A stretch of 55,392 nucleotides of DNA from Alphaproteobacteria bacterium (GTDB taxonomy: Bacteria > Pseudomonadota > Alphaproteobacteria > Rs-D84). Below are positions 32,595 through 55,392 of this stretch, piece by piece. The notes beneath the pieces were generated by a model that was not told the origin of the DNA, searched no databases, and saw only the letters and a list, made by a program, of their open reading frames with translations. The position numbers and the translations under genes were made by a program. Within the stretch, counting starts at the first letter, position 1. Each line of letters opens with the position of its first letter. The stretch spans positions 1 to 55,392 of the forward strand of contig JAFWZK010000045.1 of assembly GCA_017522445.1 (NCBI GenBank), read 5' to 3'.

Positions 32595-32670
32595 TGGCAG
32601 CCCCAACCGGATTCGAACCGGTGTTCTCGCCTTGAAAGGGCGGTGTCCTGGGCCTCTAGACGATGGGGCC
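32595..32670 (-). tRNA. tRNA-Glu (anticodon UUC), CCA encoded
   Basis: The minus strand reads GGCCCCATCGTCTAGAGGCCCAGGACACCGCCCTTTCAAGGCGAGAACACCGGTTCGAATCCGGTTGGGGCTGCCA. The cloverleaf folds (acceptor GGCCCCA/TGGGGCT, T arm ACCGG-TTCGAAT-CCGGT, anticodon loop CTTTCAA). It is close to E. coli tRNA-Glu. A terminator hairpin lies at 32563-32590. Confidence 0.93.
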
Positions 32671-33294: not shown

Positions 33295-33371
33295 TGGCGG
33301 GATTGACGGGGCTCGAACCCGCGACCTTCTGCGTGACAGGCAGACGCTCTAACCAGCTGAGCTACAACCCC
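33295..33371 (-). tRNA. tRNA-Asp (anticodon GUC), CCA encoded
   Basis: The minus strand reads GGGGTTGTAGCTCAGCTGGTTAGAGCGTCTGCCTGTCACGCAGAAGGTCGCGGGTTCGAGCCCCGTCAATCCCGCCA. The cloverleaf is complete, with anticodon loop CTGTCAC. Confidence 0.95.
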
Positions 33372-43769: not shown

Positions 43770-43797
43770 TTGCCTTTTTTGTGTATTTGTGTATAAT
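43770..43797 (+). promoter_or_regulatory. Sigma70-type promoter of leader RNA A and the Hsp70-like operon
   Basis: TTGCCT (43770-75), 16-nt spacer, TATAAT (43792-97). Confidence 0.6.
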
Positions 43798-43803
43798 GAG
43801 ATT

Positions 43804-44036
43804 TGAATCCATAGGGATATGGGTTCGGGGGCTTTTGCACGCCCATGTCATTCGGTGTAAGACGGCAGCATCGCTATTCCGATATCGTTCCTGTGGTTTT
43901 GCATCGTCATTTATCCCTGACTGTATTACAGTCGGGGGGCTGTCCGCCATACAATAGGGGATATCCTGAAAGCGGATGGGATCACTAATGACATGATTTG
44001 CAAACTCCCCGACCGCCTGCATTCCTGCGGCGGTTG
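43804..44036 (+). ncRNA. Structured leader/ncRNA element, copy A (unknown class)
   Basis: It shares six ordered conserved blocks with copy B: TTGAATCCA, TGGGTTCGGG, ATTCGGTG, ATCCCTGA, GTCGGGG and CCCCGACCGCC. Hairpins are GAATCCA/TGGGTTC, GGGC/GCCC and CCCTGACTG/CAGTCGGGG, plus a terminal hairpin CCGCC..GCGGCGG. An RBS and ATG follow at 44059. Confidence 0.5.
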
Positions 44037-44058
44037 ATCTATTGAAAGGAGTCAATGC

Positions 44059-44313
44059 ATGCGTATCACTATCTATCATACTGGACCTGTCGATTTTATA
44101 AGTAGGGTTTTAATTATTTTCGGAGCACCAGTTCTTGGTTTTATTTCTGGTGGTTACATTGGTTCTTGTATAGCAGAGATGTTTGGTTTTGTGGGTGGCA
44201 ACGCAGAGGCGGTGTTTTGCGTGCTGCTTATAGTTCTTTTTATCGCCCTCTATATTTATCTTGGGGTAAAACTTAAATTATGGCTTGAAAAATTTTTTCA
44301 AGAAAATTTGTAA
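44059..44313 (+). CDS. Small 2-TM membrane protein
   Basis: RBS aaaggag. Two hydrophobic helices: VLIIFGAPVLGFISGGYIGSCI and AVFCVLLIVLFIALYIYLGV. Confidence 0.65.
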   Translation: MRITIYHTGPVDFISRVLIIFGAPVLGFISGGYIGSCIAEMFGFVGGNAEAVFCVLLIVLFIALYIYLGVKLKLWLEKFFQENL

Positions 44314-44331
44314 TCAGATGGAGAATGGTCA

Positions 44332-44877
44332 ATGAGTGAGCAAAACTTGGATTTTATCTTGGAATTGTATAATGCACCTAAGTTGTTTAAGAAGCTTTTG
44401 GGGCATTTGTCCCCTGATGAACAGAAACGTTACATGGGGCAAATCAATTGGTTTGTAAAAAAATGTAACGATTTTATCACTAAGTCTGGCTATTCGTTTA
44501 TTGTACCAGAGGGTGTTTATGATGTTGGGATTGCAGCAACGCCATTGAATTTGTCTGATTTTGATAAAGATGAGGAGCTCTTAATTGATCAGGTTATTGA
44601 GCCAATCGTTATGTTTCAGGGCAAGGTTGTAAAGTCTGGTGTTGTTTTGTTGAAATCTGCAAAGGAACCAGAGCCGGTTGTTGAGGTTGTTGAACCTCAG
44701 GTTACGGTTTCTGCCGATATTCAGGAGGAGAATGTAGTAGATACAGAAGCGGTGGTTGTTGACCCAAGTATTGAATTTGTTGAAATTGATTTTTCTAATG
44801 CAGAGGTTGTTACCTTGGATGATGTGTTAGCAGAAACAAAAAATAATGAAAATAATGAACCAAAAGGCGATGCATAA
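44332..44877 (+). CDS. GrpE-like nucleotide-exchange-factor candidate with an acidic tail
   Basis: SGYSFIVPEGVYDVGIAATPLNLSDFDKDEELLIDQVIEPIVMFQGKVVKSGVVLLKS is colinear with the GrpE C-terminal beta-domain pattern (G-V-x-x-I..G..FDP..H.A......V..V.q.GY...gr.iR.A.V.V.K). RBS ggaga. The stop overlaps the Hsp70 start (TAATG). Confidence 0.45.
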   Translation: MSEQNLDFILELYNAPKLFKKLLGHLSPDEQKRYMGQINWFVKKCNDFITKSGYSFIVPEGVYDVGIAATPLNLSDFDKDEELLIDQVIEPIVMFQGKVVKSGVVLLKSAKEPEPVVEVVEPQVTVSADIQEENVVDTEAVVVDPSIEFVEIDFSNAEVVTLDDVLAETKNNENNEPKGDA

Positions 44878-47369
44878 TGACAAACTTTATAGGTATTGAT
44901 TTAGGGACTACTAATAGTGCTATTTCATCATATGATGGTGAAAATGTAAAAATCTGGAAGAGTTCTGATGGGTATGATGTTACGCCGTCTGCTATTTTTG
45001 TGGACAAAAGAGGAAATAAATATGTTGGTAAGAAAGCATACAACCAGATGGCGAATGATCCGGAAAATGTGGCGGTTCGTTTTAAGCGCATGATGGGTAC
45101 AAGCACTATGGTTAGTGTCCCAAATTTTGGCAGAGAGTGGTCACCAGAGGAATGCTCTGCGGAGATCTTGAAAACTATGTTCAATTATTTACCTGATGAA
45201 ATCAAGAATGATCCGGAGTTGGGAACTGTCATAACTGTTCCTGCGGCATTTGACCAAAAGGCCAAAGATGCTACACTGGCTGCCGCTAATATGGCAGGTA
45301 TTGGAAAAGTTGCTCTTATGCAGGAGCCGGTTGCAGCGGTTATGAGTATCATGAAGACTCGTCCGGAGGATGGTATATTCCTTGTTTATGACTTGGGTGG
45401 TGGCACCTTAGATGTTGCTGTCGCAGAAAGCACAAATGGGCGAGTAAGTTTGATGAGCCATGGTGGGATTTCAGTTTGCGGCGGTCGTGATTTTGACCGT
45501 GTGTTAATTGAGAAGGTTGTCTATCCTTGGATGCAAAGTCGCTTTAAATTACCTGATGAATTTTGGACCTTGGATAAGTATAAATCTATTGTTGGAATTA
45601 TAAATCATGCTACTGAAGAAGCAAAAATTGCTTTATCTGATAGAGAAAGTGCTACCATTTCGGTTTCTGAATCACAGTTGCGTATTCAGGATGAGGCAGG
45701 AGAGGATTTGTACTTGGATGTGGAAATTACACGTGAAATTTACAACCCTTTGATTGAGGAACAAATTCAGGATACAATTAAGGCTGTTCTTGACACGTTA
45801 AATGCCGCTGGTCTTAAAACAGAGGATGTTGTTCGTATAGTTTTTGTTGGGGGGCCAACAAATTATAAACCATTGCGTGATAAGGTTTCATCTCAGTTGG
45901 GTATTCCTGCGAATACCGAGGTCAATCCTATGACAGCCGTTTCAGAGGGGGCGAGTATTTATGCTGAATCCATAGATTGGTCTTCCCAGGCGCATGCGAA
46001 AAAGAATACTCGTGGTTCTATCGAGTCTAAGGGGGCGGTAAATGTAAAATTTGACTATATTGCTCGCACTCCGGATTCTAAGACTAAGCTTGTTGTTACC
46101 CTTGATTCTGGTGGTAGGCAGGGATATGAATTCCAGATTGACTCGCTAGATACTGGTTGGTCTTCTGGCAAAATTGCATTAGGCGACAAAACTCCAGTTG
46201 ATGTCCTTTTATCTAAAAATGGTGAAAATACGTTTAAGGTTTTTGTCTTTAATGATTTGGGTGAAATTGTTCCACTGGAAACAAATAAAATCGTTATTGT
46301 TAAAACAGCAGCGACAATTGATTCTATCCCAGCATCTCATACTGTGTTTGTTGGTGTGTTGGATAAATTAGGTGGAACGCCTGTGCCAGAAATTTTGGTT
46401 AAGGCTGGTGATATGTTGCCAAAACGTGGAACCATTAGGTTAAAGGCAGCAGAAACACTAAAGGCTGGCGATATGGCCTCTCTAAACTTTAATTTGTGGG
46501 AGGGTGATATTGTAACTCCGATTGACGATAATCGCCCAATTGGCTGTTTCAAGATTTCTGGGACCGACTTTGATGATGGTGTCATTCCTGCTGGGGCGGA
46601 TATTGATTGTATATATGAAATGTCGGACGATGGTAACATAAAACTAGAAGTATCTATTCCATGTATTCGTGGTTCCTTTGATTCTACGAACAATTTCTAT
46701 TCTAGACAGGAAGGACAAAAAGACTATACCGATGCAGCTGAGGGAATTATAGCGGATGCGGAATCTACCCGTAGTCGTGCGGATGATATGGCTGAGAAAA
46801 TTGACGACCCCGATTTAGATTCTGCGATTACAAAGTTGAATAATGCTGCCTCGTTGTCTTCCGATGAAAGGGATCCAGAAAAAGCAAGAGCTGCTGAAGA
46901 ACAGGTCTTGCAGGCAAAAAAGGAATTGGCAAAAGTTCGCAAAAAACATTTGAAGACGATCCGCCAAATAGAGTTGGACAAGATGCTGGAGGTTTTTGAA
47001 CCTCTGCGTAAGGTGGCAAGTACCACTGATATAAGCACTATTGATAATCTTGTTGCCAGCGCAAAGCGTACGATCGAACGTGAAAACAATGAATTTGAGG
47101 GCTATATCAAGGAAATTCGCTTTAAGATATTCGCAATTTTGTGGAAGCAAGATTGGTTCGTTGTTGCTCGTTTCAAGAATTTGGCCACACGTCGTCAAAC
47201 TGTAACCGACAAAGCTAAGTTCAATAGCTTGATTGCCGCCGGTAATAATGCGATGGAACATGACAATATTGACCGATTGAGACAAATTGTTGGTGAGTTG
47301 GAAATGATCTGTATTGGCGGCAGTGCCGGCTTTGAAGATATGAATATTACAAATATCGTAAGAGGATAG
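44877..47369 (+). CDS. Hsp70 (DnaK)-superfamily ATPase, 830 aa, non-canonical
   Basis: Phosphate-1 motif IGIDLGTTNSAISSYDG. ITVPAAFDQKAKDATLAAANMAGI..LMQEPVAAV is present. Phosphate-2 motif FLVYDLGGGTLDVAVAE and GGRDFD are present. Adenosine motif VFVGGPTNYKPLRDKV. The SBD-beta-like region is IPAGADIDCIYEMSDDGNIKLEVS, followed by a long helical C-terminus. Confidence 0.9.
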   Translation: MTNFIGIDLGTTNSAISSYDGENVKIWKSSDGYDVTPSAIFVDKRGNKYVGKKAYNQMANDPENVAVRFKRMMGTSTMVSVPNFGREWSPEECSAEILKTMFNYLPDEIKNDPELGTVITVPAAFDQKAKDATLAAANMAGIGKVALMQEPVAAVMSIMKTRPEDGIFLVYDLGGGTLDVAVAESTNGRVSLMSHGGISVCGGRDFDRVLIEKVVYPWMQSRFKLPDEFWTLDKYKSIVGIINHATEEAKIALSDRESATISVSESQLRIQDEAGEDLYLDVEITREIYNPLIEEQIQDTIKAVLDTLNAAGLKTEDVVRIVFVGGPTNYKPLRDKVSSQLGIPANTEVNPMTAVSEGASIYAESIDWSSQAHAKKNTRGSIESKGAVNVKFDYIARTPDSKTKLVVTLDSGGRQGYEFQIDSLDTGWSSGKIALGDKTPVDVLLSKNGENTFKVFVFNDLGEIVPLETNKIVIVKTAATIDSIPASHTVFVGVLDKLGGTPVPEILVKAGDMLPKRGTIRLKAAETLKAGDMASLNFNLWEGDIVTPIDDNRPIGCFKISGTDFDDGVIPAGADIDCIYEMSDDGNIKLEVSIPCIRGSFDSTNNFYSRQEGQKDYTDAAEGIIADAESTRSRADDMAEKIDDPDLDSAITKLNNAASLSSDERDPEKARAAEEQVLQAKKELAKVRKKHLKTIRQIELDKMLEVFEPLRKVASTTDISTIDNLVASAKRTIERENNEFEGYIKEIRFKIFAILWKQDWFVVARFKNLATRRQTVTDKAKFNSLIAAGNNAMEHDNIDRLRQIVGELEMICIGGSAGFEDMNITNIVRG

Positions 47370-47372
47370 GAT

Positions 47373-48788
47373 ATGATGGACCCTTGGTTACCAAAAGACT
47401 ATAAAATTGCAAAGGATGTTGAGATCAGAAATCTTGTCTTTGCAAATGATACTTGGCAAATTTATAAGACGAATAACAACAAAAATTTGTTGGTTAGTCG
47501 TCAGCCGTTAGTGGACAAGTGGGTTGATCAAGGGTTATTAAATCCTGAGGTCTTCTTCAAGTGTGATTTTGGTGGTGACAACTTTAGTTGTTTGTTGTCT
47601 TCGGAGCGGTTCCTATTAGCACCACTAAGCTATAAGTTCTTTGAGGTGGATAAGGTTTCGGCCTTAGCTTTTGCAAAGAGTCTTAGGGAAACTAGAAATA
47701 TCCTGAAGGATGTTCCGTTGGATGATGCTATTTATGTTGAACAGTATGCACGGTTGTTGCCTGTTGCTGAGTTGTCTGGTGGGCATGTTGATGATAGCCT
47801 ACTTTTAGGAACATGGTTAACCGGTGGGGTTGCTGTTCCGACTACTTCGATTAGAAGATTGAAAAGCCTGACTGCTAATTTCTCAAAGCAGGATCTGGAA
47901 GATATTATTGATGCCTCTGGTATAGAACAAAAGGTGCTGGATGGTCAGGTTGATTCAGAGGCGGCATTTTTAGATGACTTTGGCACAAGAAAACATAGTG
48001 CTGTTAAACCAACTAAGTTTTCTCTGCCTGGGGCCACGTATCTGGAAAATTTCTTTCATGAAAACGTTATTGATATAGTCCAAAATGCGGAACGGTATGA
48101 GAGTCTGGGAATTGGTTTCCCATCGCCAATTATTCTTTATGGTAAACCAGGTACTGGTAAAACTTACGCCGTTGAAAAGTTGGCTGAATTTTTAGATTGG
48201 CCAGTTTATAGCATAAATTCAAGTAGTATCGGCAGTCCATATATTCATCAAACAGGACAGAAAATTGCTGAGGTGTTCAATAAGGCGTTTGATACATCGC
48301 CATCTATTGTAATAATTGATGAAATGGAGGCATACCTTTCCAAGCGAGAGGGTGCGCAAGATTTTAAGGTCGAGGAAGTTGGCGAGTTCTTGCGCTTGAT
48401 ACCAGAGGCACCAAAGAATAAGGTGTTGGTTGTTGGTATGACTAACTTGTTGGAAAATATCGATCCTGCGATCCTTAGAACTGGTCGTTTTGACCATAAG
48501 ATTGAGGTAAGGATGCCAACAGCTGAGGACATTAAATCGATGCTTGATACGGCCCTTGCGAAATTGCCTAAGGAAGACGGTTTGGTATTGGATAAGGTGA
48601 TTGAAGCATTGACTGATAGACCACGTTCTGATGTTGCTTTTGTTGTTAAGGAGGCCGCACGATTAACCGCTTTTCGTGGTAAAGACAAAATTTCCCAAAT
48701 TGAAATTGATGATGCTCTTCAAGCTAGGGCATTGAAATCAACTGAAGACAAACCTAAAAGACGTATAGGATTTAACAATGATAATTAA
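47373..48788 (+). CDS. Classic-clade AAA+ ATPase with a ~240-aa unknown N-domain
   Basis: Walker A is ILYGKPGTGKTYAV. Walker B is SIVIIDEMEAY. The second region of homology/arginine finger is GMTNLLENIDPAILRTGRFDHKIEVRMP. It starts 3 nt after the Hsp70 stop. Confidence 0.9.
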   Translation: MMDPWLPKDYKIAKDVEIRNLVFANDTWQIYKTNNNKNLLVSRQPLVDKWVDQGLLNPEVFFKCDFGGDNFSCLLSSERFLLAPLSYKFFEVDKVSALAFAKSLRETRNILKDVPLDDAIYVEQYARLLPVAELSGGHVDDSLLLGTWLTGGVAVPTTSIRRLKSLTANFSKQDLEDIIDASGIEQKVLDGQVDSEAAFLDDFGTRKHSAVKPTKFSLPGATYLENFFHENVIDIVQNAERYESLGIGFPSPIILYGKPGTGKTYAVEKLAEFLDWPVYSINSSSIGSPYIHQTGQKIAEVFNKAFDTSPSIVIIDEMEAYLSKREGAQDFKVEEVGEFLRLIPEAPKNKVLVVGMTNLLENIDPAILRTGRFDHKIEVRMPTAEDIKSMLDTALAKLPKEDGLVLDKVIEALTDRPRSDVAFVVKEAARLTAFRGKDKISQIEIDDALQARALKSTEDKPKRRIGFNNDN

Positions 48789-50571
48789 AGAAAATCCCTT
48801 TTATATACTTGGTGCTAGTCTGCGAGACAATCGCCAAAAGATAATGTCCCTTGCGGAAGAAAAGAGCCTTGAAGTTGATGAGGCTGTTTGTTCTGAGGCC
48901 CGTATGGTACTTACAAATCCAAGAAGACGATTGGTGGCCGAGTTGTCCTGGTTCCCTGGAGTTAGTCTAAAGGAAACGTCAGTCATATTGAGTAAGTTGA
49001 AGTTTGGAGTTCTTGAGACAGAATTGCTCGATAAATTACCGCCTTTGGTTAGGTTTAACTTGTCTTTGGAGTTGTTGCTGCATGGAAAAAAGAAATTGAG
49101 TGATGCTGCTCTTGAAAAGAGTTTATTCGAACTAGCTAAATCATATGATGATATTAACGCTGATAGCTTGTTAAAAGTTATAAATGAAGAACGTAGCATT
49201 TCAGGATTCTCTGAGGTGTCAGATGTTGCTATTTTGGCCGAGGAAATTGAAAATATCAGGATCCAGGCTGTCCATTCATTACAAGATTTATTATCTGGTC
49301 GTTCTTTGACATCTCTAAACCATATTATGTTGGGTGTTCTGGCACGAGAGAAAAAGGATGGTTCTTCTTTGGAATTGGTTCAGGATTATATTGACAGCAT
49401 ATATGCGATGTCAGTTCAAAAGGATATGGAGACTTTAGATGAAGGGATAAAGTCCTCTATTGAGAATGTAAAAAAAGTGGCCGCAAGGAAAAATGTATCA
49501 AAATCTTACTTAGAGCAGGTAATTGATGAATTCCTCTCAAAGTTGGAGGATTACGATAACATTATGCAGCCTATGCAGGTAAGCATGCAAAATCGTGGCT
49601 TAGAACATACAGCAAGTAGAGAGATGGCTAGCCAGGTGCGCTTGTTGGCAATTCATTTGAGTACCAAGCACAAGGCATTTGATTTATCAGAACGAATTGT
49701 AAAAAAGGCAAAGGAGTTGTTTGCGGAGGTTAATACTTCTGCTGAACATTTTGCTGAGGACCTGTCAGCAATTACTCAGTTAAGGGAGTCTAAGGCAAAA
49801 CGGGAGAAGGAAATAACTTGCACAATTGAAAAGCGATCATTATTTTTCCCAAAAACTGTATCTATCAACCCCAAAAAAATTCAGTATGGTGAGACTGAAT
49901 ATCAATTGAATGAGATTACACATATTCGTTATGGTTTGACAGAACGATATGTTAATGGTTTTCATCAGGGAACTGATACCATGGTGGCATTTGGTGATTC
50001 TGAAGGTGAAACAGTCATAACTTGGATGGATAAGTATGATTTTAGGAAGTTTACAGATGCTCTATGGAAAGCGGTTGGTCCGGATTTGATTATGATTATG
50101 GTTGCACAACTTGCTCAGGGTAAGGATATTTACGGAACCATTTACAATGATGGTATTAAGTTGACCAAATCCAAGTTTTTTAGCTCAGAGACTAAATTCT
50201 TCAAGTGGCATGAGGTTGGTTGGGCTGAGATGAATGGAGCTATTCATTTTATGGCATTCAAAGAGAATGATTTTGTTAAAAGTTTTTCTTTCCAGGAAAT
50301 TAACAATGCTCACGTTATTTCTGTGATGATGCGAATATTCAAAGAACATCCTGCACGCACTATTAGTGAGGCATTTGGAATGTCTAAGGCCGATGCTAAA
50401 AAGGAACGTCAGGTTAGCTTCTCAGAGGATACGCCGGAGGATTCTGATGATTCAACTTCTGGAAATTCATCCTCAACCAATTCTGTGAATGATGAGAGTT
50501 CCGATGGGTGGCTTGGTCTATTCCTATTTATTTTCATTGCAATAATTATTGCAATACTTGGAGGTGCATAA
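48778..50571 (+). CDS. J-domain-like (HPD-less) tail-anchored protein
   Basis: The N-terminus ENPFYILGASLRDNRQKIMSLAEEK....ARMVLTNPRRRLVAELSWF is colinear with J-domain helices I-III (DYYEILGV....IKKAY..LA..YHPD....AYEVL.DP.KR..YD), but HPD is replaced by LEVDE. It has an acidic S/D-rich segment and then the C-terminal TM helix WLGLFLFIFIAIIIAILGG. It overlaps the AAA+ gene by 11 nt. Confidence 0.55.
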   Translation: MIIKENPFYILGASLRDNRQKIMSLAEEKSLEVDEAVCSEARMVLTNPRRRLVAELSWFPGVSLKETSVILSKLKFGVLETELLDKLPPLVRFNLSLELLLHGKKKLSDAALEKSLFELAKSYDDINADSLLKVINEERSISGFSEVSDVAILAEEIENIRIQAVHSLQDLLSGRSLTSLNHIMLGVLAREKKDGSSLELVQDYIDSIYAMSVQKDMETLDEGIKSSIENVKKVAARKNVSKSYLEQVIDEFLSKLEDYDNIMQPMQVSMQNRGLEHTASREMASQVRLLAIHLSTKHKAFDLSERIVKKAKELFAEVNTSAEHFAEDLSAITQLRESKAKREKEITCTIEKRSLFFPKTVSINPKKIQYGETEYQLNEITHIRYGLTERYVNGFHQGTDTMVAFGDSEGETVITWMDKYDFRKFTDALWKAVGPDLIMIMVAQLAQGKDIYGTIYNDGIKLTKSKFFSSETKFFKWHEVGWAEMNGAIHFMAFKENDFVKSFSFQEINNAHVISVMMRIFKEHPARTISEAFGMSKADAKKERQVSFSEDTPEDSDDSTSGNSSSTNSVNDESSDGWLGLFLFIFIAIIIAILGGA

Positions 50572-50572
50572 A

Positions 50573-50860
50573 ATGAATAAAAATTCTTGGTACATTGTTT
50601 GTTGTATTATGTTGGGTTTGGCTATTCTACCGGTCATGCCCTATGGATACTATATGCTATTACGTGTTGTTATCTGTGGTGTTTGCCTGTGGCAGATAAT
50701 TACATTATACAATAACAAGGGAACGCTGCCGGTTGGATTATGCCTGATTGCTCTGCTGTATAATCCTATATTCTCTGTTGGCTTAACACGTGGAGTATGG
50801 ACAATACTAAACATTGCCACGTTGATTTACTTTATATCAAATATGAAAGCAACTAAATAA
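50573..50860 (+). CDS. Small 3-TM membrane protein
   Basis: RBS ggaggtg. MNKNSWYIVCCIMLGLAILPVMPYGYYMLLRVVICGVCLW...LLYNPIFSVGLTRGVWTILNIATLIYF. Confidence 0.65.
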   Translation: MNKNSWYIVCCIMLGLAILPVMPYGYYMLLRVVICGVCLWQIITLYNNKGTLPVGLCLIALLYNPIFSVGLTRGVWTILNIATLIYFISNMKATK

Positions 50861-50872
50861 AGGATTTGTGAT

Positions 50873-51196
50873 ATGAAGGCTTTTTTTGCTGGTGTTGTAA
50901 TGGTAGCATTATTTGTTCTAGGTATAGTTCAATTTGGTGCATTGGTTAGTTTCTTTCACAATTGGTTTGACGGTTATATGTTTTTATCAGTTGTATTTGC
51001 ATCGTTTATTACGGGAATACCTCTTTTGGCCACAATCCTTGGTATACTTGGAGCTGTTAATGCTTGGGGCATGAATGTTTTTCTAGCTATACTGTTGTTT
51101 TGTCCGTTGCTGATAATTTATATCCCGATGATTTTAGGAATTCCTGTGGCTATTATCTTTGACAAGATTAAAAATTTGGGTAAGAATGTACAGTAA
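50873..51196 (+). CDS. Small polytopic membrane protein
   Basis: Four hydrophobic segments (AGVVMVALFVLGIVQFGALV, FLSVVFASFITGIPLLATILGILGAV, and so on). Confidence 0.6.
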   Translation: MKAFFAGVVMVALFVLGIVQFGALVSFFHNWFDGYMFLSVVFASFITGIPLLATILGILGAVNAWGMNVFLAILLFCPLLIIYIPMILGIPVAIIFDKIKNLGKNVQ

Positions 51197-51231
51197 GTTT
51201 GTTAGTTGTAATAAATTCTGTACTTGCAAAA

Positions 51232-51807
51232 ATGGGGTTTATAATGAAAGGGTTTCTTGGTTTCTTCATAGGTTCTTTGGCTGCGATTGTTCTATACCAC
51301 ATATCTCCAACCCTTTGTTTGGTTGTTTTACTTCCTATTGCTATTTACTATGCATTTTCTAGCAATAAGGAAAAAGCCCCTAAAAAAAGTGAGAAAAAGA
51401 TTGAAAATGAACGTTCGATTATCGAGAGTATGAAGAGTGCCATCTCTACACACCCATCATATGTTGATTTGTCTGTAGAGGAAAAAAGGGATTGTTTGTT
51501 AAACTTGCAGGCAGAGGCAGAGGGGATTTTAATTGCAAGCAAAAGGCAAAAAGATAATTTTGATAAAATGCCAGATGGCATAGCTAAAAGAATCGAGTCA
51601 CAAGTTATTGAAAAGTTTGCAACAACTGTTAAGGAAGCAGAGTTGCGTTCTATCGCAATTGGGGAAATGTTGGATGAGTTGAACATAGGAAAGGAAATCT
51701 CACAATCGGTCAACCAAAAGGATTCTGGAATTGAAAAAGTTAGCATCGGTGAGGTTACTACAGTTGCGGAAAACAAATCCTCTTGGATCGATGACGATGA
51801 TGATTAA
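51232..51807 (+). CDS. N-terminally membrane-anchored coiled-coil protein with an acidic tail
   Basis: FLGFFIGSLAAIVLYHISPTLCLVVLLPIAIYYAF, then a charged helical region ending WIDDDDD. The start is ambiguous (51199 TTG, 51232 or 51244 ATG). Confidence 0.55.
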   Translation: MGFIMKGFLGFFIGSLAAIVLYHISPTLCLVVLLPIAIYYAFSSNKEKAPKKSEKKIENERSIIESMKSAISTHPSYVDLSVEEKRDCLLNLQAEAEGILIASKRQKDNFDKMPDGIAKRIESQVIEKFATTVKEAELRSIAIGEMLDELNIGKEISQSVNQKDSGIEKVSIGEVTTVAENKSSWIDDDDD

Positions 51808-51952
51808 GAAATACTTCTGTTGATTTTTTGTTCGTTTTGTGATATAATGCCTGGCATCAGCGGACGGTTTTAAGCCGTCTTTTTTATTCTGCCCTGGCTC
51901 TGTGCTGGGGCTTTTTCTATGCGAGGTTTATATGTCTGGAAGGAGAGCTGGC

Positions 51953-52813
51953 ATGCAGCGTGCCAAAAACACTAAAAACGATGAATTCTATACCCAGTAT
52001 CAAGATATCGCTGCCGAATGTGACCATTACCTGGATCAGTTTAGGAATAAGGTCATATACTGTAATTGTGATACTGAGTGCAGCAATTTTGTGCGTTACT
52101 TTTTGAATCTAAAATCCCAGGGGATTATTCGTGATGTCATCTGGTCTGGTGGTCTGGGTGGCATTGACTTTCGAAGTCCGGAATCAGTTGCTATGTTGCA
52201 GCAGGCGGATGTGGTTGTTACCAATCCGCCTTTTTCTTTGTTCCGGCAATATGTGGCCCAGTTGATTGAATCAGGCAAGCAGTTCCTGATCCTGGGCAAT
52301 CAAAACGCTATTTCGTATAAGGATTTTTTTCCTTTGTTTAAGTCTGGTCAGGTTCGGTTGGGATACAAATCCTTTGGGCCGTTGTTGTTTGATGTTCCGG
52401 TGGTTGAACCAGACAAGACCTATAAGGTGGTTGATGGTGTGCCAAGGGCGGTGGTTGCGGTATGCTGGTTCACGAACCTGCAAACACCCGACAAAAATGG
52501 TCTGGTATTGTCCAAGCGGTATTTCGGTAATGAGTCTTGCTATCCAAAATACGACAACATCGATGCAATAAATGTTGGCCGTATCAAGGATATTCCGATG
52601 GACTATGATGGGTTGATTGGTGTGCCTATTACATTCATGGGTTGTTATAACCCTGCACAGTTTGTTTTAATGGGGCTGGACGAAGAATTGACCGACAATC
52701 GGGACCGTTGCACCATAAATGGTCAACGCCTGTATGCACGCATTTTTATACGCAAGAAATCGGCATCAGTTGTTGCCAATGACAATGATAACTTGACAGT
52801 CTTTGCTGCTTGA
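51953..52813 (+). CDS. N6-adenine DNA methyltransferase, EcoRI-methylase-like family
   Basis: Strong RBS aaggagag precedes ATG 51953. The N-terminus is KNTKNDEFYTQYQDI. The catalytic motif is DVVVTNPPFSLFRQYV, followed by KQFLILGNQNAISYKDFFPL. Confidence 0.8.
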   Translation: MQRAKNTKNDEFYTQYQDIAAECDHYLDQFRNKVIYCNCDTECSNFVRYFLNLKSQGIIRDVIWSGGLGGIDFRSPESVAMLQQADVVVTNPPFSLFRQYVAQLIESGKQFLILGNQNAISYKDFFPLFKSGQVRLGYKSFGPLLFDVPVVEPDKTYKVVDGVPRAVVAVCWFTNLQTPDKNGLVLSKRYFGNESCYPKYDNIDAINVGRIKDIPMDYDGLIGVPITFMGCYNPAQFVLMGLDEELTDNRDRCTINGQRLYARIFIRKKSASVVANDNDNLTVFAA

Positions 52814-52827
52814 TTCATAATCTTGCT

Positions 52828-53910
52828 ATGAAGAAATTCCTGCTGATTTTATCCGTCTTGGTCTGCATATTCTGTGGCCATAGTTCGGTTGTTCATGCAG
52901 CCAGCTATCACTCTGCTTTTGAGGTTGTCTTTGATAGCGAGAAGAAAGTTCCCGAATTCAAGTCCGTTGCAATTAAAAACCTGACCAAGTCTGAAACTAT
53001 GGTTCATGACCGGCATGAGTTCTTGGGTGTGCGCAAGCTGATTGATATTCTGGGTGAAGTAAAAGATGAAAGTCGCAAAGTTCGTTTCAAGACCAACTAT
53101 ATGCGTATTTCTGACAATGATGTTGTTTCGGTGGTTGATAAAGCGACCTGGTATTATTTCATCAATAAAAAGTCCAAGAAGCCGATTTATGCCCTGTATT
53201 ATCCGACCAATGATGTGACCGAGATAATGACCGAAGGTGATTTGTTGGTCATTGGCAAAGTCAGCGATACCGAGATTTATGTTATCTTGCTGGCCAAAGA
53301 TTCTGACAAACGTGCTGAATTCTTGAAACGGTTTGATGGTGGTCTTGCTGCAACTGGCAGCAAAAAAAAAGTAGATGACGACAAGCCATCGTTCTGGTCT
53401 AGGTTGTGGAATAAATCCTATGAAGTTGAGGAAACACAGCCGGTTGAGACACCGGTTGAATTGCAAGAGATTAAGGCAAAGGACTGGATTCGTATCTATT
53501 TTACCCCTGGTCCTGATTGTGAAAATAACATTGTAGCCGAGATTAACAAAGCCAAGAAAATTGACATCGCCGTTTATTCTATTACCAACAGAAAAATCGT
53601 TGATGCCATTTTGGCTGCAAAAAAACGTGGGGCAAAAGTGCGTGTCATTACTGACCGTCTGATGTCATCAAATAAGTATTCGCTAGATGAGGAATTGGCT
53701 GCTGCCGGTATTCCGGTTGTGATTCATAAAAAGCATAAAATAATGCACAACAAATACGCCATATTTGATAGCAAAACGATTGTGACTGGTTCCTATAACT
53801 GGACCAAGGCCGCAACCCAGTCCAATAGTGAAAACTGTCTGTTCTTTGAGCAGCCGAACAAAGAATACAGCATTCACTTTGAGGAACTGTGGGATTTATA
53901 CACTCAATAG
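52828..53910 (+). CDS. Signal-peptide-bearing phospholipase-D-family (Nuc-like) nuclease with an unknown ~200-aa N-domain
   Basis: Signal peptide MKKFLLILSVLVCIFCGHSSVVHA. The C-terminal PLD domain has the HKD motif HNKYAIFDSKTIVTGSYNWTKAATQSNSEN. Only one HKD copy is present, so dimerisation is expected as in Nuc/BfiI. Confidence 0.8.
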   Translation: MKKFLLILSVLVCIFCGHSSVVHAASYHSAFEVVFDSEKKVPEFKSVAIKNLTKSETMVHDRHEFLGVRKLIDILGEVKDESRKVRFKTNYMRISDNDVVSVVDKATWYYFINKKSKKPIYALYYPTNDVTEIMTEGDLLVIGKVSDTEIYVILLAKDSDKRAEFLKRFDGGLAATGSKKKVDDDKPSFWSRLWNKSYEVEETQPVETPVELQEIKAKDWIRIYFTPGPDCENNIVAEINKAKKIDIAVYSITNRKIVDAILAAKKRGAKVRVITDRLMSSNKYSLDEELAAAGIPVVIHKKHKIMHNKYAIFDSKTIVTGSYNWTKAATQSNSENCLFFEQPNKEYSIHFEELWDLYTQ

Positions 53911-53933: not shown

Positions 53934-53962
53934 TTGAAATCAGCCAATTTTTATGATAGAAT
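53934..53962 (+). promoter_or_regulatory. Sigma70-type promoter of RNA element B
   Basis: TTGAAA (53934-39), 17-nt spacer, extended -10 TGaTAGAAT (53954-62). Confidence 0.6.
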
Positions 53963-53968
53963 GGGATT

Positions 53969-54179
53969 GAATCCAAGATCTTGGGTTCGGGACTTTCCTA
54001 GTCCACTAAATTCGGTGCGAAAGCATCGTTAATTGATGTTATCGGTGTTTTTGCGCCGTTATCATCCCTGATTTTGGTCGGGGTGCTGTTGGTTATATAA
54101 AACGGATTTCCGGAAGACCGCAGAATCAGTAATTTAGTGATTAGGAACACCCCGACCGCCTTTTTCTTGGGCGGTTTTT
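53969..54179 (+). ncRNA. Structured leader/ncRNA element, copy B, ending in a strong intrinsic terminator
   Basis: It has the same ordered blocks as copy A: TTGAATCCA 53967, TGGGTTCGGG 53982, ATTCGGTG 54010, ATCCCTGA 54064, GTCGGGG 54077 and CCCCGACCGCC 54150. The terminator is ccgcc-tttttcttg-ggcgg plus T5. Confidence 0.5.
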
Positions 54180-54200
54180 ATATAAAATAGGAGAGATTTT

Positions 54201-54305
54201 ATGAAAAAAGTGTTATGTATTCTGCCAGTTCTGGCTTTGACAGCTTGTGACAAACCAACAACATCTATTGGAGGCCAATGGTGTAATCTCCACCCGTGGC
54301 ATTAA
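54201..54305 (+). pseudogene. Truncated small lipoprotein ORF
   Basis: RBS aggagag. MKKVLCILPVLALTACDKPTTS has the lipobox LTAC. From about 54265 the frame reads into foreign GC-rich DNA and stops at 54305. Confidence 0.5.
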
Positions 54306-55392
54306 GGCGGACGCATTTCGATACGGTGAGCTGGTCTTTGATGTCAACTCCGCCTACTTCTACAATCATGGCGGCTATGACTTCGCAAAACAATTTTACA
54401 CCGACGCTTACAAAGCCGCAATCAAAATCGTAGGCGGAGAGCAGTATATTTTGTCGGCGGTCATGCATGCCGACGAGCGCAACCGGGCCATGTCCGAGGC
54501 GCTGGGGGAGGACGTGTACCACTACCACCTCCATGTGGTCTATATCCCGGTGGTGGAGAAGGAGATACGATGGACAAAGCGGTGCAAGGACAAATCCCTG
54601 GTGGGCAAGGTCAAAGAAACCGTTATGCAGGTCAGCATGAGCAAAAAGTGGGCGTCCCAGCCCGCAGTAGACGAGGCCACCGGGGAGCCATTACGAACAG
54701 CAAAGGGCAAGCCTGTTCTGAGAAAGTCGTACAGCGTCTTGCAGGATGATTTCTTTCAGCAGATGCGCTCCGCTGGCTACACGGACTTGGAGCGTGGAGA
54801 GCGTGGCAGTTCCGAGGAACATCTGACGGTCACGCAGTTCAAGGTGAAGTGTGAACAGGAGCGGTTGGCACAGCTTCAGGAGGCGGCTGTGCTGGCCCAG
54901 GCCGAGGTTGACCGAAAGAACAGGGAGGCGGCAGCTGCCGAGAAGAAAGCGGCCCAAGCCAAGGCCAAACTAAACGATGTGGCCCCCATGCTGAAAGGCA
55001 TGGAGAAGCTGGCGGAGGAATTTTCCAGCGACCCGGAACAGGTCTTGCCAGAAGCGGGACCGCTGGAATCGGCCAGAGCCTACCGGGAGAAAAAGGCCAA
55101 GCCCTTATGGGCGAAGATCGTCAAGGTGCTGCGGTCTGTCTATCGGGCCTACTACGACCTCAAATCCAAATTTGAGCGGCTGCAAGCGGACTATGGCCGG
55201 GAGGTCAGCAAAAACAGCACCTTATCAGAAAGAATTTACGAGGTCTGCGCCGAGAGGGACAGTCTAAAGGGAAAGGTCAGAGACTATGAGCGGGTCAGGC
55301 GGGCCATTGGCCCGGAACAGGCGGACAGAATATTAGAGGCCGCTTACCAGCAGGAACAGGCTGAAAAGGAACGGAAACGGGCCGCAAGGCAA
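54271..55392 (+). mobile_element. 5'-truncated MobV/Pre-family relaxase (plasmid recombination enzyme) gene fragment; it runs off the right edge
   Basis: Frame 1 is open from 54241 to the window end. It reads ...GIKADAFRYGELVFDVNSAYF...ILSAVMHADERNRAMSEALGEDVYHYHLHVVYIPVVEKE...HLTVTQFKVKCEQERLAQLQ and then a coiled coil. The H-x-D-E...H-x-H motif III is present, but the N-terminal ~90 aa carrying motif I are absent. GC content is visibly much higher than the flanking DNA. Confidence 0.75.

Follow-up and report, generated by a model that had tools for sequence, protein, structure and literature searches.

We found that a 55,392-nucleotide (nt) stretch of alphaproteobacterial DNA from the order Rs-D84 (contig JAFWZK010000045.1; hereafter the window) carries two copies of a structured leader RNA, copy A at approximately 43803-44045 and copy B at approximately 53967-54188, both on the plus strand. 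The family of which they are members comprises more than 200 copies, with leaders 190-270 nt long. The leader is probably a cis-acting, riboswitch-like conditional attenuator of transcription. One of its strands, X', can pair with an upstream strand, X-up, to form hairpin H4, or with a downstream strand, X-down, to form the alternative helix P1alt, and X-down runs into the base of a terminator-type hairpin that is followed closely by a gene. The family is apparently undescribed as far as Rfam 15 and the literature that we searched show; leaders of this general kind are already known.

An earlier reading of the window, made from the letters of the sequence alone (here called the original prediction), had proposed a structured leader with its own promoter upstream of an Hsp70-like operon at copy A, and a second locus that shares ordered blocks with it. 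That observation is real and its interpretation is supported. The two loci have 76% column identity on the alignment, with the invariant blocks in the same order, and a count across the window gave exactly two occurrences apiece of the block patterns GAATCC..GGGTTCGGG and GTCGGGG..CCCCGAC, where 100 shuffles gave an expectation of zero. Both copies are predicted to fold more stably than their dinucleotide shuffles (z = -4.7 for copy A and -5.8 for copy B). All three reading frames of the leader contain stops and the lengths of the indels in the family are not multiples of three, so the leader is non-coding. The original prediction correctly recognised a discrete, structured leader, about 240 nt long and with a promoter of its own, but this leader is not specific to the Hsp70-like operon: members of the family precede about 100 different genes.

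The structure of the family was assessed in an alignment, A2, of 102 copies that are mutually less than 90% identical and were collected with a pattern that fixed the X' and X-down strands. When A2 was scored as one structure, 95.2% of the cells were paired and compensatory changes were present in 36 of the 56 pairs (785 cells). With these homologues aligned, covariation is evident, with a score of 0.466 compared with 0.212 in shuffled alignments (none of 500 shuffles equalled it) and 0.07-0.10 when the partners were slid. The three hairpins with compensatory changes that had been described from the two copies are all present and are backed by covariation in these non-redundant homologues, and the same is true of the second pairing of GTCGGGG, with the CCCCGAC that lies next to the terminal hairpin. 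RNAalifold and an unsupervised mutual-information scan agree on the helices, including a pseudoknot and a long-range helix, and the minimum-free-energy folds of copies A and B taken singly give the long-range helix, H4, H5 and the terminal hairpin. Across the family there are 663 G-U cells and only 45 A-C cells; therefore the structure belongs to the RNA of the plus strand and not to a DNA repeat.

The family fold consists of three helices capped by GNRA tetraloops, a pseudoknot formed by a hairpin loop, and a long-range helix. In copy A it opens with H1 (43805-43826), GAAUCCAUA-GGGA-UAUGGGUUC, a 9-bp hairpin with a GNRA tetraloop and with many compensatory changes at A2 pairs 8:24, 10:19 and 11:18. 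H1 is a GNRA-capped hairpin of 8-9 bp across the family, and in copy B (53969-53988) it has an 8-bp stem and a GAUC loop; the loops of 8 and 6 nt once assigned to this hairpin are in fact of 4 nt in both copies. H2 (43829-43844) pairs GGGC at 43829-43832 with GCCC at 43841-43844. Its counterpart in copy B (53990-53993 and 54001-54004) is GGAC/GUCC, and the stem (A2 helix 3) is 93.5% paired, with G-C replaced by A-U at pair 34:46. RNAalifold also put forward pairs 32:308 and 33:307, between GG and the CC of X-down; these never vary and clash with an H2 stem that has G-C to A-U changes, and were rejected.

The loop of H2 (UUGCA, 43835-43839) is the 5' strand of the pseudoknot and pairs about 250 nt downstream, where the 3' strand in copy A is UGCAA at 43999-44003 (53995-54000 and 54142-54147 in copy B). 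Pair 39:300 of A2 occurs as CG 50, GC 28, AU 18 and UA 4 times, and pairs 40:299 and 42:298 covary as well. Just inside the pseudoknot lies the long-range helix of 7-9 bp, in which CAUGUCAUU at 43844-43852 pairs with AAUGACAUG at 43987-43995 (54004-54012 and 54131-54139 in copy B) and which contributes the top mutual-information pairs (58:283, 59:282, 60:281, 61:280 and 52-54:288-290). Both elements had been overlooked in the original prediction. Within the long-range helix, H3 (43854-43906 in copy A, CGGUGUAAGAC...GUUUUGCAUCG; 54014-54058 in copy B) is a variable middle hairpin domain (A2 helices 8-9) that is shortened or absent in some members and is missing from short variants such as L018. 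H5 (43940-43979; 54086-54123 in copy B) has a conserved internal loop of (C)AUACAAUA opposite GAAAG, which in the family is UAUAcAAcA / GAAAG; its inner stem is GNRA-capped in most copies and it shows compensatory changes at A2 pairs 217:270, 235:258, 236:257 and 237:256. The 3' junction (43980-44005 in copy A) begins with GAUCA, carries the 3' strands of the long-range helix and the pseudoknot, and contains a conserved AAC. One isolated pair, 36:272 (43833/43980 in copy A), covaries strongly (UA 82, CG 13, UG 4); it connects the bases that follow the H2 stem and H5 and probably represents a contact in the junction or the tertiary structure.

In copy A the toggling strand X' is GUCGGGGG at 43931-43938; X-up is CCCUGAC at 43915-43921 and X-down is UCCCCGAC at 44006-44013, the GAC of which is also the base of the terminal hairpin. 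The corresponding strands of copy B lie at 54066-54072 (X-up), 54077-54084 (X') and 54149-54156 (X-down). In A2, pair 214:304, which joins the base after GGGG to the base before CCCC, covaries (AU 44, GU 37, UA 15, GC 3). A second sample, alignment A4, was gathered by the 5' domain only; the earlier 3' pattern is matched by just 15 of its 75 copies. On A4 the helix scored was P1alt, and H4 was tested by a script that sought the complement of X'. P1alt is 99.1% paired in A4 and has three compensatory pairs. In the 5'-domain sample a perfect 7/7 complement to the copy's own X' is found no more than 40 nt upstream in 74 of 79 copies, compared with one of 79 for a control window. The X' variants GCCGGGG, GUCGGGU, GUCGGGA and CGCGGGG are compensated in X-up and X-down alike; with the common variant GUUGGGG, X-up has changed from G to A in several copies and a G-U pair is kept with X-down. 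Evolution has thus kept both pairings of X', a pattern that fits a real switch. Because the GAC(C) of X-down is the base of the terminal hairpin, the strands together with the 3' side of the terminator form the classical 1:2 / 2:3 / 3:4 arrangement. For the nascent transcript of copy B the two states are predicted to be nearly equal in energy (-75.7 and -77.5 kcal/mol).

A promoter-like site and a terminator-type hairpin flank the leader. The promoter reported for copy A, TTGCCT-16-TATAAT, is present at 43770-43797 on the plus strand, with the -35 element TTGCCT at 43770-43775, a spacer of 16 nt and the -10 element TATAAT at 43792-43797, and it gives a predicted start at about 43803-43805. Copy B is preceded (53934-53962) by TTGAAA, a 17-nt spacer and a TG-extended TAGAAT. 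A TAnnnT hexamer begins 12 or 13 nt 5' of the G of GAAUCC in 144 of 190 family copies, and TTG stands at a spacing of 16-18 nt from the -10 in 104 of the 190. This sigma-70-like promoter ends about 7 nt ahead of the first helix, and since the -10 hexamer lies at a fixed distance before H1 the transcript is predicted to start at H1.

At the other end of the leader, a GC-rich terminal hairpin of 7-10 bp is present in 129 of 130 family copies; at least five T residues follow within the next 8 nt in 118 of 129, and a same-strand open reading frame (ORF) with a ribosome-binding site follows in 124 of 129, its start lying a median of 27 nt after the hairpin (interquartile range 24-29). An interval of 27 nt is too short for another promoter, and the gene would therefore be transcribed only by read-through of the leader. 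Hairpin and U tract together, as expected of an attenuator that works by intrinsic termination, are found in the family and in copy B, where the terminator at 54154-54176 is followed by UUUUU. Copy A has them only in part: its hairpin (44011-44035, GACCGCC...GGCGGUU) is followed by the U-poor tail UGAUCUAUUG. The gene start of copy A (44048-44061) consists of a ribosome-binding site, GGAG, at 44048-44051 and an ATG at 44059-44061 that opens an 84-aa membrane ORF. That of copy B (54190-54305) has GGAG at 54190 and an ATG at 54201, which opens a lipoprotein ORF that is truncated in the window and complete in L001, a near-identical locus. The ribosome-binding-site windows of genes that follow leaders contain GGGG in 54% of cases compared with 24% of control ORFs, the control set being noisy. 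The CUCCCC of X-down, when free, is complementary to GGGGAG and could add translational masking of the ribosome-binding site; no covariation was seen between A2 position 304 and the ribosome-binding site. In several metagenome loci (L279, L294, L316, L318 and L320) the leader terminator is followed by CUCCCCC-loop-GGGGGAG hairpin repeats with no ORF, and these repeats may be a separate element.

The leader had been regarded as an RNA of unknown class, and the Rfam scan proposed at the time does leave it without any family: nothing in Rfam 15 matches at gathering score. It is not entirely without relatives, however. Permissive scans of both copies returned nothing consistent except sRNA-Xcc1 (RF02221), to which the 3' 85 nt of copy A, from X' to X-down, align over the full length with 29.7 bits, where the gathering score is 53. 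Scores of 28-42 bits, also below 53, were obtained for seven of 13 relatives, and copy B has no match at E of 10 or better. In the reverse direction a covariance model built from the 3' domain of the family only (R1) finds the Xcc1 of phage Aaphi23 over its full length with 32 bits (rough E of about 1e-4), and that RNA is a true member of the Rfam family (86.1 bits with the Rfam model). The two RNAs have in common a closing helix, GUCGGG../..CCCGAC, and a CGAAC junction ahead of its 3' strand, and hairpin 1 of Xcc1 aligns with H5, with its internal loop AUACAAnA / GAA and its short, GNRA-capped inner stem. Of the three-way junction of Xcc1 the leader has covarying P1alt and H5, while the equivalent of hairpin 2, GAAUCA/UGAUUU, is without compensation and has its loop taken up by the long-range helix. 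The leader differs in adding a 5' domain of about 130 nt (H1, H2, H3 and X-up), which is joined to the Xcc1-like module by the long-range helix and the pseudoknot and which supplies, in X-up, a competitor of the closing helix; moreover, in the leader family the second hairpin has been replaced and a canonical U-tract terminator comes next. The hosts also differ, the leader being found in Rs-D84 gut Alphaproteobacteria and Xcc1 in integron cassettes and phages of Gamma- and Betaproteobacteria.

Published work and annotation treat sRNA-Xcc1 as a trans-acting small RNA. Xylella has seven homologues of it, five of them clustered in a genomic island; Xcc1 lies upstream of symE in Xanthomonas integron cassettes and upstream of an ORF6N gene in APSE phages. 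Its true copies resemble the leader in their position closely ahead of a gene on the same strand, on mobile DNA, and in having a closing-helix GAC that overlaps the next hairpin. In phage Aaphi23, for example, Xcc1 (L328, 1498-1582) sits between a Q-like antiterminator gene and the antirepressor gene ant, ends 39 nt before ant on the same strand, and overlaps a small hairpin with its GAC. Such positions suggest that Xcc1 is a 5' leader. Bona fide sRNA-Xcc1 was also seen in 56 phage records, including Stx-converting phages (L329, Stx phage P13374), Moraxella phages and Aaphi23.

These features can be assembled into a model for the operation of the leader. Transcription would begin at the leader's own sigma-70-type promoter and could end at the hairpin of intrinsic-terminator type, which stands about 27 nt ahead of the start codon. 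H4, in which X-up is paired with X', would form first, while transcription is in progress. In the default, OFF state (state 1) the long-range helix and the H2-loop pseudoknot would close a four-way junction holding H4, X-down would be left free, and the full terminator would form and stop transcription. In the ON state (state 2) X' would pair with X-down instead, and the resulting P1alt would close an Xcc1-like three-way junction of P1alt, H5 and H6; P1alt would deprive the terminator stem of 3-4 nt, GAC(C), on its 5' side, leading to read-through into the gene. An effector would act by stabilising state 2. Our best guess for this effector is a small molecule or a nucleotide messenger that binds within the conserved junction (AUACAAnA / GAAAG / GAAUCA / CGAAC), which would make the leader an ON riboswitch. 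The leader does have two of the general attributes of a riboswitch, namely a covarying, structured 5' leader domain and mutually exclusive pairings that are tied to a terminator; that the junction nucleotides hold a small ligand is nevertheless a possibility that we advance tentatively.

Several observations weigh against this model or parts of it. The start site is a prediction, termination and read-through are inferred from the anatomy of the leader, and the identity of the ON state and the nature of the trigger are proposals. P1alt would remove just 3-4 of the 7-10 pairs of the terminator and on its own may weaken termination only modestly, and the H6 hairpin (GAAUCA/UGAUUU), the third arm of state 2, shows no compensatory change in A2. 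In copy A state 1 is predicted to be some 15-20 kcal/mol more stable than state 2, and a terminator scan that called the hairpin of copy B did not call that of copy A, with its U-poor tail. Taken together, the poor tail and the strong preference for state 1 mean that transcription may leak through copy A or that this copy may operate in another way. The 105 distinct proteins encoded downstream of leaders are heterogeneous and for the most part of unknown function, and no coherent gene set pointing to a ligand was found among them; 'riboswitch' is for this reason still a candidate label. A second-messenger trigger must also be reconciled with the extremely reduced genomes of the Enterousia hosts.

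The absence of a metabolic theme that would suggest a ligand can also be read as pointing to a different trigger. The same attenuator might be operated by a protein or another RNA, such as an RNA-binding antiterminator or a specialised NusG paralogue, that binds X-up or the junction, for example. The set of surface, adhesin-like and outer-membrane proteins, glycosyltransferases and restriction-modification genes found downstream resembles the regulons of RfaH-, UpxY- and LoaP-type proteins, and the default fold favours termination. This is the main alternative, but we consider it unlikely all the same: three GNRA-capped helices, a pseudoknot and highly conserved, unpaired nucleotides in the junction are more typical of self-contained RNAs that bind ligands than of leaders that bind proteins, no candidate partner protein was identified, and the occurrence of the same core as sRNA-Xcc1 in unrelated hosts and phages argues against a protein restricted to one lineage. 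The kinship with Xcc1 bears on another explanation too, in which the leader, once terminated at about 215 nt, is a functional small RNA in its own right, encoded in many copies and acting in trans, and its nearness to genes is incidental to cassette organisation. Xcc1 has been published as trans-acting and is multi-copy in Xylella, the leaders have a promoter and terminator of their own, and the exposed CUCCCC complements ribosome-binding sites of the GGGGAG type, the regions around the ribosome-binding sites of leader genes being G-rich. This explanation is quite unlikely given that orientation and spacing are almost invariant (124 of 129 with a same-strand ORF, at a median of 27 nt), that 27 nt cannot accommodate a promoter for the ORF, and that bona fide copies of Xcc1 also adjoin same-strand genes (ant, symE and ORF6N). 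Cis and trans roles are not mutually exclusive, and a trans-acting role in addition is possible.

Switching itself might be illusory. The leader could be a constitutive module of the 5' untranslated region that protects or processes the mRNA, or a portable promoter and leader placed before accessory genes, with the hairpin as a stabiliser. The great diversity of the apparently accessory genes that it precedes would be in keeping with this, as would the hairpin without a U tract in copy A and the strong preference of that copy for state 1. A static structure would have no need for compensatory upkeep of both partners of X', however, nor does it explain why the U-rich tail has been kept in 118 of 129 copies, and we regard a non-switching module as very unlikely. 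Finally, tens of repeats per lineage, the inverted repeats formed by X-up with X' and by X' with X-down, and the presence of Xcc1 relatives in integron cassettes might indicate an element that acts as DNA, such as a miniature transposable element, a repetitive extragenic palindromic (REP) sequence, an integron attC site or an invertible promoter; a small protein gene might also be imagined. The pairing is strand-specific (663 G-U compared with 45 A-C) and is compensated in helices whose strands are up to 250 nt apart, the orientation to promoter and ORF is fixed, and no match was found in plasmid and phage collections, while a coding gene is contradicted by stops in all frames and by indels that are not multiples of three. 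Explanations of this last kind are accordingly extremely improbable.

A conditional attenuator of the type that we favour would have parallels among known leaders. In the pbuE adenine riboswitch, an ON switch, the closing helix of the aptamer competes with the terminator. The leader resembles switches of the pbuE type in being a structured 5' leader with a three-way-junction core in which the closing helix and an intrinsic terminator overlap, the former by its 3' strand and the latter by its 5' strand, and in following the 1:2 / 2:3 / 3:4 logic of classical attenuators. It differs from them in that only 3-4 nt are shared with the terminator, in that the competitor of the closing helix lies upstream, within a large covarying alternative fold, and in that no Rfam riboswitch model matches it. 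The c-di-GMP-I (GEMM) riboswitch occurs in many copies per genome before surface, secreted and adhesion genes and in mobile elements, and it has GNRA tetraloops; multi-copy placement before surface-type genes and GNRA-capped helices are shared by the leader, whose sequence and fold are unrelated and do not match in Rfam. The put, EAR and LoaP/UpxY-type leaders are structured and promoter-proximal and control surface-polysaccharide or accessory operons by overcoming terminators. These antitermination leaders are of smaller size and work through RNA polymerase or NusG paralogues on terminators that lie downstream, whereas in the present family the element includes its own terminator and has conserved an internal exchange of strands.

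The family was delimited by two kinds of search. Searches with nhmmer gave at least 131 copies for the genome and viral loci together and 75 for the metagenome loci; pattern scans gave three relatives on viral contigs, more than 118 matches in species-representative genomes and 71 metagenome loci. The pattern matches on viral contigs are mostly due to chance, and by nhmmer only L001, L002 and L018 are family members. Three genome matches in the GC-rich taxa Isoptericola, Leptolyngbya and Acidimicrobiales were also due to chance and were removed on the basis of GC content. A BLAST search with copy A found no match in the plasmid and phage collections. Among the matches listed, the named hosts are nearly all Candidatus Enterousia or bins of gut Alphaproteobacteria (from humans, ruminants, horses and chickens), and the window shares stretches with Enterousia-type genome bins that are 83-94% identical. 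Copies of the family were also seen on contigs labelled as belonging to Bacteroides fragilis or Muribaculaceae bins (L158, L188 and L211), labels that are likely to reflect mis-binning. There are two copies in the 55-kb window and at least four on one contig of 347 kb, several contigs per bin carry copies, and, among the matches listed, 12 of some 118 loci, each of 8 kb, contain a second copy; from these densities we infer about ten or more copies per genome. Genomes of the order Rs-D84 are only about 0.75-1.0 Mb in size (PMC12306168), and almost no regulation is known in Candidatus Enterousia and its order.

The genes that follow the leaders make up a regulon concerned with the cell surface and defence and not with any metabolic pathway. 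Most of the 105 distinct downstream proteins are without a Pfam family, and many have N-termini resembling signal peptides or lipoboxes. Ten of the 105 are Listeria-Bacteroides repeat surface proteins; the other recognised families include outer-membrane beta-barrels, an opacity-type porin, a YadA anchor, a surface antigen and glycosyltransferases and, on the side of defence, Mrr and PLD nucleases, a UvrD helicase and several DNA methylases. The five products of the operon behind copy A are the 84-aa membrane protein, a protein of 181 aa, an Hsp70-fold ATPase of 830 aa, an IetA-like AAA ATPase of 471 aa and a 597-aa protein that belongs to no family; the operon is followed by two small ORFs, an EcoRI-type methyltransferase and a PLD-family nuclease. 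The region as a whole (44059-53910) looks like a defence island, and PADLOC did not recognise the Hsp70-like/AAA operon as a known, complete defence system.

Two further observations concern the window itself. The lipoprotein gene that follows copy B (ATG at 54201) agrees with the intact homologue in L001 up to 'DKPTTSI' and no further; beyond this point the frame enters a 5'-truncated Mob_Pre relaxase frame of 57% GC (54298-55392; PF01076 from profile position 73); the boundary at about 54271-54298 is either an insertion junction or the result of chimeric assembly. Two tRNA genes on the minus strand, at 32598-32670 and 33298-33371, are the sole matches in the window at Rfam gathering scores.

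These near-minimal genomes, of about 0.75-1 Mb, appear to spend some 230 nt at each of an estimated ten or more loci on one elaborate leader. If the leader is a conditional attenuator, it would constitute an orphan riboswitch-type RNA with a clear strand-exchange logic, and it would govern the main regulon for the remodelling of surface and immunity in these uncultured gut symbionts or parasites. A wider proposal, which we make tentatively and regard as rather doubtful, is that a class of riboswitch still to be discovered has the Xcc1-type three-way junction as its aptamer, that the 5' extension in Enterousia has turned this junction into a high-copy ON switch, and that Xcc1 itself acts in cis and not in trans. 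Were this true, a small signal, a nucleotide second messenger or a stress alarmone for example, would release surface, glycosyltransferase and restriction or defence genes co-ordinately, and the widespread sRNA-Xcc1 would be a cis-acting riboswitch. The sRNA-Xcc1 copies of integrons, genomic islands and phages of the Stx and APSE types may be cis-regulatory elements standing before toxin or antirepressor genes.

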